From positions 17,980,001 to 18,044,000 of the forward strand of contig OZ024756.1 in assembly GCA_964016885.1 (NCBI GenBank): a DNA stretch of 64,000 bases. Direction: 5' to 3'. The notes under the pieces were generated by a model. That model saw only the letters and a program-made list of their open reading frames with translations, did no database searches and was not told the origin of the DNA. Below are positions 1-48,279 of this stretch, one piece after another. Position numbers and translations under genes: made by a program. How positions within the stretch are numbered: position 1 is the stretch's first letter; every line of letters begins with the position of its first letter. The stretch comes from Eledone cirrhosa (lineage: Eukaryota).

Positions 1-70
1 TACTGGTGTGGAGTATCAACTGTCTCAGATGGAAATCCACGAAGTAACATCCGCAAACTCAATGTACTTG
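1..70 (+). CDS. Ig receptor exon (5' truncated by window): end of a V-set Ig domain, YWCGVSTVSDGNPRSNIRKLNVL(G)
   Basis: Frame 1 reads Y-W-C (Ig F-strand) and ends in a G-strand-like KLNVL. Phase-1 donor G|gtaaat at 70/71 joins in frame (G|GT) to the acceptor at 1783 or 3257. Confidence 0.8.
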
Positions 71-299
71 GTAAATAATTTAACTTTACCTATCTATTTG
101 TCTGTCTATAAGTCTCCCTATCTCTCTCTCTATCTATTCATTGGTCTGTCTTTCTCTCTCTCTATCTATACATCTGTCTGTCTATCCATCTGTCTATATT
201 TCTGTCTGTCTGTCTATCCATCCATCTATTTATCTCTCTGTCCATCTGTCTGTCTATCCATCTGTCTGTCAGTCTATCTATCTCTATTTATCTATGGAC

Positions 300-1055
300 A
301 ACTTCCAGAGGTCCCTGGCCTGTCAGTGTTACTGAGGAGCTCTACCATTTCATGACAAGATCTACAGGCATGGATGCCCTGGCAGAGATCCTTCCAAGAG
401 GACATGTCCAAGATGCGGGCAGGACATTGAAATTGTCCTGCACACAATTGTACACTGCCCGGGCGTAACAGACCTGTGGAACTATGCAGAACAACTGCTG
501 TCACATATGGGACAAATCCAGTTGACTGCCGAGTCCATAGTAAGGATCAAACTGCCAACCTCTTTCAAAAATGAATGAGAGGTGGTTTTCCTCTGTATAG
601 GGGCTATGGTGAAAGAGGTTATATGGTGGACGAGATTGAGAGGACTGAGGACAGATGCCTTTCTCTCTGGACAGCAACTCATTCCCTTCTTTAGGTACCA
701 CTTTAGAAAGAGAATCAGAGTGGAGAGAGAGGCACTACACCCCAGTAAATTTACTGAATGGTGGGTGAATGTGGTAAAAATAGCCCGAGTGATTGGGCCT
801 TCTCTGTATATAAACCTGTAGGTTGAAGAAGAAAGCAAAAGGAGGAAAGGAGCACTTGCACAACACGCTCCTGAAGTTGAGGGTTGTTCTATCGACGGGG
901 TATTAAACAACCCATTTGTGGCGCCTCCCCCCTATTGGGGATTTTGATTGTTAAATTTGTCTTTCAATATTTTTACACGATTGTATGTAAAATCCCCGGC
1001 ATGTGTCCTTGTTCTGTCCCCTTTTCTTGTGCGCCCTTGTGGCTAATAAAGAAAT
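300..1055 (+). mobile_element. Degenerate L1/Tx1-like LINE 3' fragment
   Basis: Translates LIPFFRYHFRKRIRVEREALHPSKFTEWW, resembling an L1-Tx1 ORF2 C-terminus. Ends in gcccttgtggctaataaagaaa, a tail also seen at about 50525-50547. Flanked by (TCTA/TCTG)n. Confidence 0.5.
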
Positions 1056-1782
1056 ATATCTATCTCTATTTATCTCTCCATCAGTCTATCAGTCCATCTG
1101 TCTCTCCCTCCCTGTTTGTCTCTATCCATCTGTCTCTCTGTCTATCTCTCTGTCTGTCTGTCTCTTCTGTTTATCTGTCTATTTGTCATCATCATCATCA
1201 TCGTTATTCAAAATGTTTATTGGACAGACAGTTGTGACCCACAACATCTGTCCACATTCATTAAAGGTAGGATGCTTTACGGATATTATTTGATTGATTT
1301 CATTGTTGAAGACTAAAATTTAAGAAATTGAGAGATAAAAAAATATGATCTACAATGATAAATATTTCCTCAGGAAATTATTTACAATTTTTACATTTGT
1401 GACTGTAATTCTAATGAACTATATTGCATTTCCATTATTCAATGAAATATTTTGAAGCATTTATTGAAATTATTGATTATTTCATTACTAAAATAGTTAA
1501 TTAATGCATGATTCTTATATAAAATTATATTGGAATATTTTAATTTAAATAGGGACTCTTTAAAACATGTTTTGTTTCATAGAACCAGTGCCAGTTCTGG
1601 CAGGTTTGGTATCAAAAGGGTTAAACTGTGCTTTTTACTAATGATTGCTGATCTCTACTTCAGAACCACCCCTTTTAACTAAGGTTTCTCTCTGTTGGGC
1701 CTTGCTACTGTTGATCATTGTTGACTTCATTAATAATCTGTATTTGATGTCCCTTCTTTTCCATGTTTTTTTTTATGTACAG

Positions 1783-2088
1783 GTCCACCTGGGTATCCAA
1801 ATCTACAAGCTCCATCTGGTAATCTGATTCTAGGCGACACTGTCACTGTTTTTTGTGAAAGCAATGTAGGCAAACCAGCTAAGAATTTAGAACTCTGTAT
1901 TGACAGTGGTGGCATTGATTCCACAAACGCTATTTGTAGTAATGGAACTGAACTAGTTGAAATAGAAAATAAATGCATTTTCACACAAAATGTAAGCCAG
2001 ACATTTAGCTTGAGTGAAAAAACACGTCGTGCTACATGCAAGGTTGGATCAACTACATTCAAATCAGAAAAATCCTGGAATGTATACT
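1783..2088 (+). CDS. Ig receptor C2-like Ig exon, copy A (GPPGYPNL...FCESNVGKPAKNLELC...ATCKVG...WNVY)
   Basis: Acceptor ttttatgtacag|GT and donor T|gtaagt. 306 nt, phase 1-1, no stops. Has the C-x-S-x-x-G-x-P motif of C2-type Ig domains. Not in the ORF track in this frame. Confidence 0.88.
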
Positions 2089-3256
2089 GTAAGTTTACCT
2101 TTATTATTCTTTAATATATGTATTATTTTATTCTTTACAGTTATTAGACTGTAGTCAAGCTGCGACATCAACTTTAAGGGACATTAGGCAATCATATCAA
2201 GTCTGGTATTTATTTGGTCCATCTCCTTTTTGTCAACATACTAAGTTATGGTTGATAAACGCGCACACACACACACCACAACCACAATCACCACCATTAC
2301 CATCATCATCACCATCATTTGACATCCATTTCCCTGCTAACAAGGTTTGGTGTTACGGTACACCTTGACAGTGTTTCATTGGTGTCACTGCACAGCTAGA
2401 CAGACACAGATGCATTATTTTAAACCTAGATAGACAGCCTGTAATGTAACTTGCAGCATCCATGTCACATTTGTTCATTCTATTCTACAAGATGCACTGA
2501 ATGCACTTTTTACATGCCACTTATACTTGAGTTATTATGTATATATGTGATCTGAATAGGTGCAGGCATGCCTGTGTGGTTAAGAAGTTTGCTTCACAGT
2601 CTTGTGGTTTTAGGTTCAATCTCATTGGTTTCAAATAGAATCATCCTTCTGTATGCCTTGACCCTCTGTCAAATGTAGGATCTACATCATCATCGTCATC
2701 ATTATTCAAAATGTTTATTGGACAGACAGTTGTGTGACCCATAACATCTGTCCACAGATATTATTTGATTGATTTCATTGTTGAAGACTAAAATTTAAGA
2801 AATTGGGAGATGAAAAAATATGATCTACAATGATAAATATTTCTTCAGGAAATTATTTACAATTTTTACATTTGTGACTGTAATTCTAAGGAACTATATT
2901 GCATTTCCATTATTCAATGAAACATTTTGAAGAATTTATTAAAATTATTAATTATTTCATTACTAAAATAGTAATTTAACGCATGCTTCTCATATAAAAT
3001 TATGTTGGAATATTTTGATTAAAATAGGGACTCTTTGAAACATGTTTTGTTTCATAGAACCAGAGCCATTTCTGGCTGGTTTGGTATCAAAAGGGTTAAA
3101 TTGTGCTTTTTGCTAATGACTGCTGATCTCTACTTCAGAACCACCCCTTTTAACTAAGGCTTCTCTCTGTTGGGCCTTGCTACTGTTGATCATTGTTGAC
3201 TTCATTAATAATCTGTATTTGATGTCCCTTCTTTTCCATGTTTTTTTTATGTACAG

Positions 3257-3544
3257 GTCCACCTGGGCATCCAAATCTACATGCTCCATCTGGTAATCTG
3301 ATTCTAGGCGAAACTGTCACTATTTTTTGTGAAAGCAATGTAGGCAAACCAGCTAAGAATTTACAACTATGTATCGAAAATTCACAAAACAGTCAATGTG
3401 TTAATGGAAGCGAACCAGTTAAACAAACTGATGTATGCATGTTCACACAAAATGTAAGCCTGACAGTTAAGCTGACTAAAGCGACAATCCGTGCTACATG
3501 CAATGTTGGATCAAATAAATCAGAACAGACCTGGAATGTATTCT
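3257..3544 (+). CDS. Ig receptor C2-like Ig exon, copy B (GPPGHPNL...FCESNVGKPAKNLQLC...ATCNVG...WNVF)
   Basis: Acceptor ttttatgtacag|GT and donor T|gtaagt. 288 nt, phase 1-1, open. Lies inside ORF 3238-3570. Confidence 0.88.
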
Positions 3545-4399
3545 GTAAGTTTATTTCTTTTATTCTTTAATCTTTTTATTACTTTATTCTTTAGTTATTA
3601 GACTACAGTCAGACTAGGGGATATACTTCAAGGAACATGAGGCAATCATATCAACTCCAGAACTTATTTTTTCAAGTCTGGTATATATTTTGTCCATCCT
3701 CTTTTTCTCAACATGTTAAGTTATGGGCTGTAAACACAGATGCACACACACACATACATACACATACATCATCATCATTGCCTTCATTTAACATCCATTT
3801 TCTGTGCTAACAAGGGATGGATGGGTTGTCACAGGCGGAATCAACTCTCAACAAGTGGAGTTACTGACCTCTCAGACAAGCCTGTATCTGACATATGTTA
3901 CTGTGCTGTATTGAGTGTATTTTATCATAGTACCAGCACTAGGGATGTTGTCATGTCTAATGACACAGCTGAAGTATCCTTCTGGTCCTTTTTTTGGAAG
4001 GTTTTCTGCAACTGGATACCCATCTTTTCACCAGCACTAGGGAGGTTGTCATGTCCCTATGTTATGAGTATTTGACAAAATACATTCTGTTATTTGTACT
4101 TGCTTTCTGTTTAAGTTCAAATCTTGCTGTGGCCCACCTGGGTTGTAGACTTAATCCGGTACCTGGTTTAACAACATCACCTGGCCCTTCTTGGGTGCCT
4201 TTAGCAGAATCCACTCTGTTGCAAGCATTCGAGCCAGGTTTCTGATTTCAGCAGATCATCCCCCATTCCTTCCAACATTCATAAAGACCCAGGAAAGTAT
4301 TATGGATACTGGCCCCTTCTGTCCATTTCTAAACAATTAGCAAAAAGTAAAAATGAATGTTTCTTTCAGTTTGGGCAATCAAAGTCTTCCACATTTGGT

Positions 4400-5023: not shown

Positions 5024-5293
5024 ATCCCGTTGACTCCATAATGTTCCTTCCATCTGACGATACTTGGACACTGAGCCGTGGCAGCAATAAAACCTTCAAA
5101 TGTGAGGCACTTGGCAACCCCCAACCCACATACAAGTGGCAATTTTTCCCAAAGTCGCCTCAAGACAACCGTATATTCCAGGGTCAAAGTATCAATCTTC
5201 ATTCTCAACAGAGTGGCCGCTATGTATGTACTGCCACCAACACAGTCAGAGGAGTCCAGTATAACATGACAAAAACATTGGTAGTTACTGTCG
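5024..5293 (+). CDS. Ig receptor I-set/C2 Ig exon (YPVDSIMFLP...FKCEALGNPQPTYKW...QSGRYVCTATNTV...TLVVTV)
   Basis: Acceptor tttcag|AT and donor G|gtaagt. 270 nt, phase 1-1. Canonical C-x-A-x-G-N-P-x-P-x3-W and S-G-x-Y-x-C-x-A-x-N motifs. Confidence 0.93.
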
Positions 5294-7907: not shown

Positions 7908-7982
7908 TTGAAATGCCAACAACCCAAAATCCAAGTGCCACTTCTACATTTCAAATAGCTACTGCTGCTCCAGCTACTTCAG
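7908..7982 (+). CDS. Ig receptor Ser/Thr/Pro-rich stalk exon (VEMPTTQNPSATSTFQIATAAPATS)
   Basis: Acceptor ttgattgtag|TT and donor CAG|gtaaaa. 75 nt, phase 1-1, mucin-like composition, in frame with both neighbours. Confidence 0.75.
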
Positions 7983-10850: not shown

Positions 10851-10961
10851 ACAAACAAAAGATTATCCTGGCAACTATTATCCCATTAATCATCATCATC
10901 ATCATTGTGATTATATGTTTCATATTGTACAAAAGAAGAGCTAAACCTACGGAAATTGAAG
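10851..10961 (+). CDS. Ig receptor transmembrane exon (DKQKIILATIIPLIIIIIIVIICFILYKRRAKPTEIE)
   Basis: Acceptor tttcttgcatcag|AC and donor G|gtcagt. 111 nt, phase 1-1. A 23-residue hydrophobic helix followed by a KRR stop-transfer signal. Confidence 0.88.
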
Positions 10962-12876: not shown

Positions 12877-12898
12877 AACCTCCAGAAAAACCACGGAA
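12877..12898 (+). CDS. Ig receptor cytoplasmic micro-exon (EPPEKPR)
   Basis: Strong acceptor ctctctttcag| and donor AA|gtaagt; 22 nt, phase 1-2. Confidence 0.6.
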
Positions 12899-13544: not shown

Positions 13545-13627
13545 CAATCACACAGATGTCAACATGATGAATACAAAACCAGACCTTGTCCATTCCACAG
13601 GGATTGCAAGTACCTATGTATAATAAT
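13545..13627 (+). CDS. Ig receptor cytoplasmic exon with apparent +1 frameshift (NHTDVNMMNTKPDLV / IPQGLQVPMYNN)
   Basis: Acceptor ttggttttctttag| and donor AAT|gtaagt. At 83 nt it is one base too long to bridge phase 2 to phase 0. Confidence 0.55.
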
Positions 13628-14918: not shown

Positions 14919-15041
14919 GCGTTTGACCTTGGAGGTGAAGAAGAATTAAACTACATTGATGACAAACCTCGCAGCCGCAAACCAGTAATGCCTCTCCACG
15001 GTTCTGTATCCTCTTATGACACAACATTACCTTGTGTCTAG
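14919..15041 (+). CDS. Ig receptor terminal coding exon (AFDLGGEEELNYIDDKPRSRKPVMPLHGSVSSYDTTLPCV*)
   Basis: Acceptor tttttcctctttttag|GCG; open in phase 0 to TAG at 15039-15041. Acidic-preceded Tyr motif EEELNYIDD. Confidence 0.72.
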   Translation, partial: AFDLGGEEELNYIDDKPRSRKPVMPLHGSVSSYDTTLPCV

Positions 15042-15845: not shown

Positions 15846-17161
15846 TACCCACTTTACTACCCATAGTATCAAGTACTCTGGTGTGTTATGGTCCACCTGG
15901 TTCCTTACCACACTTCCTTCGTTATATATATATATATGGCCGTGTAGTTAAGGAGTTAGCTTAGCAACCATGTGCTTTCATGTTGTGTTCAAGCCTTGCC
16001 GCAATTGACTTTGCTTTTCTTCATTCCATGGTTGATAAAATAAAGTAGCGGTCATGTACTGGGGTAAACCTATTCAATTACTGGGCCTTCTACATATATT
16101 AGAAACAATTAGGGTCGATTTAATCGATTTCCCCTCCCCCAAAATTGCTGGCCTTGTGCATATAGTAGAAATCATTATTATTATGGCTGTAATTGGTAGA
16201 GAGTCAGGAACATGCTTTGTGGCATAGAGTTACGGCCCTTTATGTTCTGAGTTCAAATTCCACTGGGGTTAGCTTTGCTTTTCATTCTTCTGGTGTCAAT
16301 AAAATAAAGCACCAGTAATGCACTGGGGTTGATTTAATTGACTTTCTCCTCGCCAAAATTGATTTTGTGCCTAAATCAGAAACTATTATTTCAGCTGAAG
16401 GAAAGGTGAAGGGTTAGCAAAGTCGGTAGAGCAGCAGACAAATGTGTAGCAGTGTTTGTTCTGAGTTCAGATTTAATCTTTAGCATGCTAGAAATTTTTA
16501 TGAATTGCTTCCCTTGACAGTGCAATATATATTAAGGGGAGATTGCTCTTTTGGTGACATAATGCGCCTAGAGTGTGCTGAAGATTAACTTTGTCTGCCG
16601 TCTTTCTGGTGTCAATAAAATAAAGTACCAGTCAAGTACTAGGGCTGATATACACAACTATTGCCCTTCCCAGATGCTGTGCTGAAATGAGAAGGATCTG
16701 TCCAACCCATGCGAAGAACTGACGTAAAAACGATGATGATGATGGTTGTTTGGAATTATGGTGGGTTGGCAGTCGTTAGAGCATCGGAGAAATGCACAAC
16801 ATTATTTGCTCCAGCTGTCTCTTTACATTCTGAGTTTAAATCCCATCCAGTTTAACTTTGCCTTTCATTCTTCCAGAGTCGATAAAATAACGTACCAGTC
16901 AAGTACTGGGGGTTGATGTGATTGACTGTTCTCCTTCATCCTTTGAATTTCTGACGTGTATCTGTGTATGGCATGGGCAATGGTGTAATCATTGCTTCGG
17001 ATAGTAGAATAATCATTTCTTTATTAAACAGAAAAAACAGCTTTAAATCGCTTCTAAAGGTGATGTTTTATATTGGAATTACACGAAAGGTTGTGAGTTC
17101 AATTCTCAGACCGGGTGATGTGTTGTTTCCTTGAGCAAGACACTTTATTTCACATTGCTCC

Positions 17162-21712
<4,551 letters not shown>

Positions 21713-21767
21713 TTGTGCTTAAATGTTCTCACAGGCATACCTTCTGGTAACTTTGTGGATGTATATA

Positions 21768-21824
<57 letters not shown>

Positions 21825-21891
21825 CTCTATCATGTATATGTGTATATGATACAACCGTATCATATACACATATTGTACATGTATATTCATA

Positions 21892-21931
<40 letters not shown>

Positions 21932-23674
21932 TGTGTGTGTATGAGTATATATACATCCCATGCTAGCGTGGAAGAACGGATGTAAAACTGTGATGATGAT
22001 GATGATGCATGTGTGTATGTATATATCATTTTTTTAATCTGATGCTTGACTACACCCAAGACTGCCACAAGTTCTATGCTGTGGAACAACCTATATTATA
22101 TATATATATGTGTGTGTGTGTGTATGTATATTGTTTAATGTGTGTATATGTATATATGTGTGTGTATATATATATATATTATGAGTGTGTGTACATGTAT
22201 ATATATATATTATATATATATATATATCATCATCATCATTTTACGTCCGCTTTTCCCATATATATATATGTATATATATATATATATGTGTGTGTGTATG
22301 TATATTTATGTATGTGTCTGTGTGTGTGTCTCATGTTCTTCGTTTTTTGTGGTAAAGGCTTTATCTCACATAATTATCTCATAATATCGAATCTATGATA
22401 TTTTGATGTTATTTATTTTGAGAACCATACCTTAACATCAGTATGAGTGGCCAGTTACAGCTGGCTTTAACAGAAAGAGGTGAGAAAATTCTGGTTGGAC
22501 ATAACCGGTTTAAATGCTAAAGGGTTAAAGAATTATAGATGATGTGTCTGGGGGAAGTAAGCAAAACAACCGACTGTATTTTTGTTTCAAAACCTTTGTC
22601 TTATCCCTCTGGCAGCAATTTTTGTATCATCTTGTGATTTTGAGGGAGAGGAAGTCAATTAAATTGACCCCAGAGTACCAGTAACTAGCTGGGGTAAATT
22701 TAATTGACTTTCAATTTAATTGACTGTTGGCCTTATGCCTAAATCAGAAACCATTATTATTATCTGCCTGAGGTTAACTTTGCCTTACATCCTTACGGGG
22801 TCAATAAAATAAAGCACCAGTAATGCACTGGGGTAATTGCTGGCCTTTTGCCAAAAGTAGAAAGATTATTATTAACCAAGAGCAATGGCTTGGCAGTATC
22901 GGTAGTGTGTCGGACAACATGCTTCACAGAATAGAGTTACAGCCCTTTGCGTTCTGATTTTAAATACCGTCCAGGTTAACTTTGTCGTTCATCCGTACGG
23001 AATTTGTATAAAATAGAGTACCAGTAATGCACTGGGGACAATTTAATCAATTTTCCCCTTCCCCAAAATTGTTTGCCTTGTGCCGAAATCAGAAACCATT
23101 ATTTGAATGATATCTGTAATACTGACTTAGCTTTTGGTTCTCCTGCTTCGCAGTATAGAGTTACAGCCCTTTTGCATTCTGATTTCAAATCCCGTCCAGG
23201 TTAACTTTGCTTTTCATCCTTACAGGGTCGATAAAATAAAGTACCAGTAAGGCACTGGGGCCAATCAAAGAAATTCCTGAATCTGCTTATCATATTTACT
23301 GCTGTACTATATTTTATTCTATTACTGTTGTTTTCTTTTTTCATTCCATCCCCAACCCTTTTATTTTAAATATTAATTCATCATCAGAAGCTTTTGTTAT
23401 ATTTTGTGAAACAAAAGAAGTTATTTGTTACAATAAACCTTCCTAGGAATTTTAATTCTTCAACCGTCCTTCGCTCGAGTTTCTAGTAAGAGATCCATTT
23501 GAAAAGCAAAACAAAACGGAAAAAAATATATATATAAAAACAAACAAAATGGATCCTTTGGAATGTTCAGTTTTATTTTTACAACTTTTTATATTCAGAA
23601 TTTTTATTAAATAAAGTGAATAATATATATAAATATGTATCTTGTGTTATTTTTGTTAGTCACTATTATTAGTA

Positions 23675-48079: not shown

Positions 48080-48279
48080 NNNNNNNNNNNNNNNNNNNNN
48101 NNNNNNNNNNNNNNNNNNNNNNNNNNNNNNNNNNNNNNNNNNNNNNNNNNNNNNNNNNNNNNNNNNNNNNNNNNNNNNNNNNNNNNNNNNNNNNNNNNNN
48201 NNNNNNNNNNNNNNNNNNNNNNNNNNNNNNNNNNNNNNNNNNNNNNNNNNNNNNNNNNNNNNNNNNNNNNNNNNNNNNN
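48080..48279. other. Assembly gap (200 N)
   Basis: Run of N. Confidence 1.

Follow-up and report, generated by a model that had tools for sequence, protein, structure and literature searches.

Two neighboring exons of Eledone cirrhosa, which we call A and B, encode Ig domains and are similar enough to be duplicates of one another. They raise the question of whether selection has driven them apart and, if so, whether the gene that carries them encodes a recognition receptor. In the original prediction, the two exons had diversified almost only at amino-acid-changing sites, and they were proposed to be a diversifying recognition domain. We analyzed them in a window of 64,000 nucleotides (the window being the whole stretch of DNA that was studied) and in the surrounding genome.

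The gene around exons A and B and its second copy

Using exon scans and splicing, we reconstructed an Ig receptor gene of ten exons, which encode a signal peptide, the domains V, A, B, and C, a stalk, a transmembrane (TM) segment, and three pieces of tail. This bears out the view that the locus holds an uncharacterised invertebrate receptor, and the sequence predicts a type-I surface receptor of Ig type. A search of the genome (G000) revealed a second A-B pair 48.5 kb upstream of the pair in the window. In the following, the gene with the upstream pair is copy 1 and the gene in the window is copy 2. The signal peptide exon lies at G000:C17:17963637 and the other exons of copy 2 are placed as follows in the window:

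1..70, plus strand: 3' end of the V-set exon (whole exon G000:C17:17979729-17980070, starting 271 nt before the window)
1783-2088, plus strand: exon A, C2-type Ig domain with five cysteines, phase 1-1, AG/GT ends, open frame
3257-3544, plus strand: exon B, C2-type Ig domain with five cysteines, phase 1-1, AG/GT ends, open frame
5024-5293, plus strand: exon C, Ig_3/I-set domain (Pfam Ig_3, 3.3e-10)
7908-7982, plus strand: exon D, Thr/Ser/Pro-rich stalk, 15 nt shorter than in copy 1
10851-10961, plus strand: exon E, transmembrane helix (predicted in the orthologue) and basic stop-transfer sequence
12877-12898, plus strand: exon F, proline-rich tail motif conserved across molluscs
13545-13627, plus strand: exon G, tail, 5 nt shorter than in copy 1, with a frameshift and a stop 4 nt before the exon end
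14919-15041, plus strand: exon H, tail end in copy 1, intact but out of frame here, with one silent difference

The positions of A and B, their AG/GT splice sites in phase 1-1, their frame, and their five cysteines each are as first described. The match of exon A to Pfam Ig_2 was weak, and the exon is homologous to domain 2 of a molluscan receptor family (see below). Copy 1 encodes 562 aa, whereas copy 2 stops at 513 aa with a truncated tail. The truncation appears to be derived, because the reading of copy 1 matches those of Octopus and Argonauta. As the stop lies so close to the last junction, the message of copy 2 may escape nonsense-mediated decay. The frameshifted tail ends in Thr-Tyr-Val, which fits a class I PDZ-binding pattern. 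In the stalk exon, the three substitutions between the copies are all replacements, and they come with the 15-nt indel. No third gene copy was found with four queries in the genome or in the 454 kb around the locus, searches that give lower bounds. With P0023 as a query, all ten exons except the smallest were matched; a word-index search with exon A returned no match and an HMMER search did.

Divergence between exons A and B

Exons A and B arose by duplication of the receptor's middle Ig domain, apparently within its own lineage. By self-BLAST, they belong to two units that are 82.9% identical, within which a shorter tract stands out:

1187-2345, plus strand: first unit of the exon duplication (intron, exon A, intron)
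2685-3815, plus strand: second unit of the exon duplication
1638-1889, plus strand: gene-conversion tract (intron end and codons 1-35), common to the B unit at about 3112-3363

The counts behind the original prediction were correct: 95 codons align, with 31 amino-acid differences and in-frame indels of 4 and 2 codons, and the codons with silent changes only are the same four that had been listed. Yet the divergence is not almost only amino-acid-changing, since many of the changed codons carry two or three changes in which silent steps are hidden. Counting along pathways resulted in Nd 42 and Sd 9 for 219 N and 66 S sites. The NG86 dN/dS then ranges from 1.46 (kappa 1) to 1.94 (kappa 3), with Fisher p of 0.20-0.05. 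With GY94 maximum likelihood (ML), where kappa was estimated at 1.3, it is 1.26 (F1x4, p 0.58) or 1.06 (F3x4, p 0.89), and 0.82-0.94 from codon 35 onward. The ML result was unchanged when the ambiguous indel regions were omitted. Hence, the formal check for dN/dS above 1 failed: the ML ratio is indistinguishable from 1, and positive selection between A and B is unsupported. A ratio near 1 is still high for a working exon with intact frame, splice sites, and cysteines. We also rejected an asymmetric evolution of the two exons, which have 8 and 9 derived residues, and their tree had zero supported branches. A and B may mainly act as spacers, in which case their own ratio would reflect weak constraint outside the cysteines together with conversion.

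The introns had been used as a further argument, since those upstream of A and B are more alike than the 3' two-thirds of the exons. This is true (543 matches, 27 mismatches, and 28 gap columns in the upstream introns), but it does not speak for selection, because the downstream intron is as diverged as the exon. Divergence between the units is low in the upstream intron (4.7%) and the initial third of the exon (3.9%) and then rises sharply within the exon, to 24.7% in its last two-thirds, with 20.5% in the downstream intron (p 0.30 for the difference between the last two). In an alignment of the four copies, there were 0 A/B-diagnostic sites in about 1638-1889 and 44 in the remaining exon. 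The 5' part of an old duplication was homogenised by gene conversion or unequal exchange. The likeness of the upstream introns is then due to the conversion tract, not to slow introns, and the idea of introns more conserved than the exon is accounted for by gene conversion. One contig of the read run X4 contains an exon B with copy-1 letters but A-type codons 36-37, adjoining the end of the tract. This suggests that conversion between A and B is still segregating.

The codon split by the A-B splice junction (2088/3257) encodes a Cys, those at the V-A and B-C junctions a Gly and a Tyr. Two cysteines are invariant in the family, one in the EF loop of V and one in domain 2, and they may form a bond between the domains. 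The new Cys at the A-B junction could partner the extra Cys of B, and all 16 ectodomain cysteines would then be paired.

Substitutions between the gene copies and the variable face of V

Between copy 1 and copy 2, the four Ig exons differ by Nd 40 and Sd 3, which corresponds to an NG86 dN/dS of 4.2-4.9 (Fisher p 0.004-0.001; GY94 likelihood ratio test (LRT) p 0.0003-0.0008). We quote the NG86 values because the GY94 ML estimate, about 10, is inflated by multi-hit codons. For comparison, the signal, TM, and tail exons have only 2 N and 2 S differences. The ectodomain of the receptor is thus diversifying, as was proposed, but the signal is centered on V and not on A or B. To set a baseline, we used the introns, which differ between the copies at 345 of 15784 positions (2.2%, one misaligned repeat segment being excluded). 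Only the V exon exceeds this rate: its 21 replacements in 253 sites represent a 3-4-fold excess (P 2.5e-7, or 1.5e-5 when the local introns, which are more diverged, serve as the baseline). In A, B, and C, replacements accumulate at the intron rate (19/658, P 0.14-0.51), and their signal is a dearth of silent changes (0 in 197 sites, P 0.003-0.013). Taken alone, V has a marginal dN/dS (Fisher p 0.07-0.10, LRT p 0.04-0.06); only when measured against the introns is its signal strong. V, rather than A or B, is most likely the recognition domain, and a pathogen or self/non-self role may be proposed for the receptor.

One could also explain these data by relaxed constraint after duplication. Exons A and B and the two gene copies would then drift almost neutrally, with copy 2 turning into a pseudogene, and the low silent count would result from chance and conversion. 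This would fit the dN/dS of 1.06-1.26 between A and B, the replacements of A, B, and C at the intron rate, the frameshifted tail of copy 2, and the copy-1 type of the spliced contigs seen (see below). Still, we consider this explanation unlikely. Drift yields a dN/dS of at most 1, not 4, the replacements in V exceed those in introns, and the same V sites vary in Octopus. Moreover, the Ig exons of both copies (8/8) are free of stops and frameshifts and all ectodomain cysteines are kept.

Diversification of V can be placed on a structural model. The Pfam V-set match of V is weak, below the cut-off, and AlphaFold predicts a V-type fold for V of copy 1 (pLDDT 82.5), whose best matches are antibody V domains and nanobodies, and in which strands B and F bear Cys 43 and Cys 110. 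On the model, the copies differ at 10 of the 35 residues of the BC-C-C'-C'' region against 7 of the 78 elsewhere (p 0.01, the regions having been defined after the data were seen). There are no differences among the 33 residues of strands B, D, E, and F, and the changes in strand C fall on the alternate positions 36, 38, and 40. With a wider face defined on Octopus numbering, differences between copies 1 and 2 are not enriched (10/51 vs 6/56, p 0.15). Among 12 distinct Octopus V domains, sites with at least three states amount to 20/51 on the front face and 3/56 on the back (p 1.6e-5). The sites that differ between the two copies of E. cirrhosa have a higher entropy in Octopus (p 5e-4).

Read contigs provided data on splicing and on further variants. 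One contig of run X4 joins the last base of exon B exactly to the first base of exon C. Another includes the end of exon A and two further bases, compatible with the intron as well as with exon B, and then leaves the intron. The unique intron bins had no depth in this run, which is not recorded as RNA; the contigs are likely spliced RNA. Their letters are of the copy-1 type at 3/3 differences in A and 5/5 in C, which implies nothing for copy 2, as a small part of the records was viewed and contigs drop variants. Regarding the concern that one of the exons might never be transcribed, B is spliced in a copy-1-type transcript. The exons had no coverage in the RAD run X5. In one V-exon contig, 199 nt cover 205 positions, of which 14 have other letters, whereas a contig of copy 1 would have 16 such letters and no gap; this is a third variant of V, identical to neither copy. 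In B and C, the DNA contigs of sample S1 mix letters of copy 1 and copy 2 at distances of 20-30 bases and so represent further mosaic alleles. In all, three V variants came from at most two samples plus the assembly.

The V exons of both copies are flanked on both sides by fragments of one LINE in direct orientation (92% and 74% alike, G000:C17:17929882-17932430 and 17978690-17981159). These fragments are a possible substrate for the exchange of V exons. We rejected their interpretation as LTRs because they are pieces of a LINE. One such fragment, which had a very high contig depth, is in the window:

292-865, plus strand: decayed 3' fragment of a LINE-like repeat, with a related fragment across the V exon in direct orientation

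A molluscan receptor family and the readings of its variation

A profile search and two homologue searches returned octopod proteins first, followed by one or two proteins per species in bivalves and gastropods. The family includes LOC115221682 of O. sinensis, CAI9737182-188 of O. vulgaris, GAB1610102.1 of Argonauta, and XP_022323577 of C. virginica, and its members bear automatic names such as 'cell adhesion molecule 2-like' and 'CEACAM5-like'. With these uncharacterised molluscan V-C2-I receptors, true homology extends over every domain and the tail motifs. At the protein level, at which all comparisons with the Octopus and Argonauta genes were made, identity to O. sinensis is 53, 50, 57, 69, and 81% in V, C2, I, TM, and tail, respectively, and identity in V is 53% to Octopus and 32% to Argonauta. 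In every pair compared, conservation of the tail exceeds that of the Ig domains. Between O. sinensis and its O. vulgaris orthologue, identity is 91% in V, 98% in C2, and 100% in the tail, and the paralogues of O. vulgaris have mean identities of 80% in V and 92% in C2. ITIM and/or ITSM motifs, searched as consensus patterns, occur in 19/21 non-octopod tails, in 0/5 octopod long tails, and in neither copy of E. cirrhosa. The long tail ends in Val.

The family has expanded in several octopods. In O. vulgaris, six accessions on one contig (CAI9737182-188) include 10 V domains; their gene models look fused, and a tandem order may be inferred from the accession numbering. At least three loci are present in O. 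sinensis. The third domain is duplicated in O. bimaculoides, and short-tailed forms occur both there and in O. vulgaris. The duplication of the middle domain, which results in four Ig domains, was found only in E. cirrhosa among the species compared. Because the two copies of E. cirrhosa group apart from the Octopus genes (with a modest support of 85/58), the expansions in E. cirrhosa and Octopus look independent. One V lineage is common to O. sinensis and O. vulgaris (P0071 and P0027, support 100/99) and predates their split.

Several known receptor groups resemble this family. In Siglecs, an essential Arg lies on strand F after the Tyr-x-x position. This position has a Gly in E. cirrhosa and a Glu, Tyr, or Lys in Octopus; membership in the Siglecs was rejected, although MAG and CD22 rank high by E-value. 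CEACAM N domains lack the B-F disulfide, whereas V here keeps the B-F pair of cysteines. There is also no family-level homology to CEACAMs: the family-level matches are molluscan and the CEACAM name is an automatic label. The likeness is in the way of evolving. Primate CEACAM1 and CEACAM5/6 are described as having escape variants and tail-less decoys (PMC8860441, PMC11646289). Tandem paralogues, a diversifying V domain, gene conversion, and long-tailed next to tail-less copies are found in both groups. The ancestral tail of the molluscan family would likewise have had ITIM/ITSM motifs, but the octopod long form lacks the ITIM, so the inhibitory half is missing.

The predicted fold of the receptor is nectin-like, nectin-1 having the best TM-score among the matches listed (TMq 0.46). 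Nectins, Necl, and CADM proteins (PMC7286890) also combine V with two further Ig domains (as in the three-domain orthologues), a TM segment, and a C-terminal Val that is a putative PDZ ligand. The differences are an identity of only 15-17%, extra conserved cysteines in V and domain 2, other tail motifs, and four Ig domains in E. cirrhosa. Hydractinia Alr1/Alr2 are, like the octopus receptor, invertebrate IgSF proteins led by a V domain, with a tandem cluster and a variable ectodomain; the Alr genes number 41, some with ITIM/ITAM in their tails (PMC9546547). Membership in the Alr group was also rejected: their fibronectin-III-like fourth region has no counterpart here (no FN3 in Pfam scans or the model). 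There are two copies instead of 41 genes. Alr proteins have extreme allelic polymorphism and allele-specific binding, and three V variants are known here so far. In oysters, CgNCAM1, CgIgIT2, and CgSiglec-1 are ITIM Ig receptors reported to bind microbes and damp responses (PMC11841013). CgNCAM1 has three Ig domains and FN3, and CgIgIT2 has five Ig domains, both unlike the octopus receptor.

In the literature outside subscription journals and supplements, searches by accession and by topic returned no paper on the family. Papers on oyster IgSF proteins appear in subscription journals, and a description of an orthologue may exist under a different name. A term search found no octopus, cephalopod, nectin, or CEACAM in the main text of a 2025 review on invertebrate IgSF (PMC11999971), and a haemocyte transcriptome study of O. 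vulgaris mentions Ig proteins once, in another context (PMC4199593).

By analogy, the best reading would be a convergent evolution of escape and decoys as in CEACAMs. We give about an even chance that V diversifies in response to a microbial or parasite ligand attaching to its front face, the copy with the truncated tail being a probable decoy. The molluscan ancestor would have been a cell-adhesion or signalling receptor acting through ITIM/ITSM, and octopods would have retained its proline-rich and C-terminal motifs but not these tyrosine motifs. Once a microbe or parasite engages the V face, variants of V might escape binding. Time and again, duplicates would shed the long tail and change on the V face, like primate CEACAM1 and CEACAM5/6, and the tail-less copies could serve as decoys. 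A broader proposal is tentative at best. In it, a conserved ITIM-ITSM 'checkpoint' receptor of molluscs would have lost its inhibitory motifs in octopods and turned there into a polymorphic recognition locus that was duplicated several times, comprises signalling as well as decoy copies, and is a candidate for self/non-self recognition.

If true, this would be the first variable receptor system of the CEACAM/Alr type in cephalopods, and it would show that an invertebrate converged on the escape-and-decoy pattern of CEACAMs. Cell-surface recognition of pathogens or self is little known in cephalopods, and the locus is a concrete candidate. The family spans bivalves, gastropods, and cephalopods, the octopods having changed its signalling motifs and duplicated it separately in several species, and the variation sits on the face of V that other V-set receptors use for binding. 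The evolutionary pattern as such is already known from vertebrates and Hydractinia, and the A/B pair that first drew attention is not the selected part.

Variation of the front face would also be expected of a self/non-self marker, i.e., a polymorphic homophilic adhesion receptor, comparable to Hydractinia Alr1/2, whose V alleles bind matching alleles only and serve in tissue or skin self-recognition. The V-led three-Ig fold, nearest to the ectodomains of nectin-1 and Necl-4 by TM-score, is compatible with such a role, as are the third V variant and the V lineage that O. sinensis and O. vulgaris share. Yet octopuses are solitary and do not fuse, only two gene copies were found in the genome, and in the P0026 cluster of a relative six variants differ at only three positions. 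We therefore hold this role to be rather improbable. It is more doubtful still that the V face follows a co-evolving partner, be it reproductive (on the surface of gametes or spermatophores), neural, or otherwise heterophilic. Proteins of this kind also have a high dN/dS on their binding faces, and the conserved tail (81% to O. sinensis) fits a housekeeping role in adhesion, but the repeated tail-less duplicates suit decoys better. Finally, a false duplication, in which two alleles of one locus were assembled in tandem and the replacement excess is allelic polymorphism, is very improbable and a true tandem duplication more likely. In its favor, the S1 DNA contigs show a single letter at several diagnostic sites and intron divergence is just 2.2%. 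But the assembly runs without a gap from 17.78 to 18.028 Mb, and the units are set apart by many indels and by a LINE that measures about 6-7 kb. The S1 contigs also carry combinations of letters absent from both copies, and the assembly of contigs collapses bubbles.

Escape and decoy evolution remains our preferred reading. In the surroundings of the locus, a broken, near full-length non-LTR retrotransposon (RVT_1, zf-RVT) occupies G000:C17:17972800-17979300, in the signal-V intron of copy 2 only. From 15100 to 64000 of the window, we saw no long coding frame of a recognisable gene. This part includes about 4.8 kb of almost pure AT repeat at 17160-21950 (GC 1-7%) and an assembly gap at 48080-48279. 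Upstream of the cluster, a neighboring gene has EGF-like exons on the minus strand (G000:C17:17840753-17840520 and 17806066-17805785).
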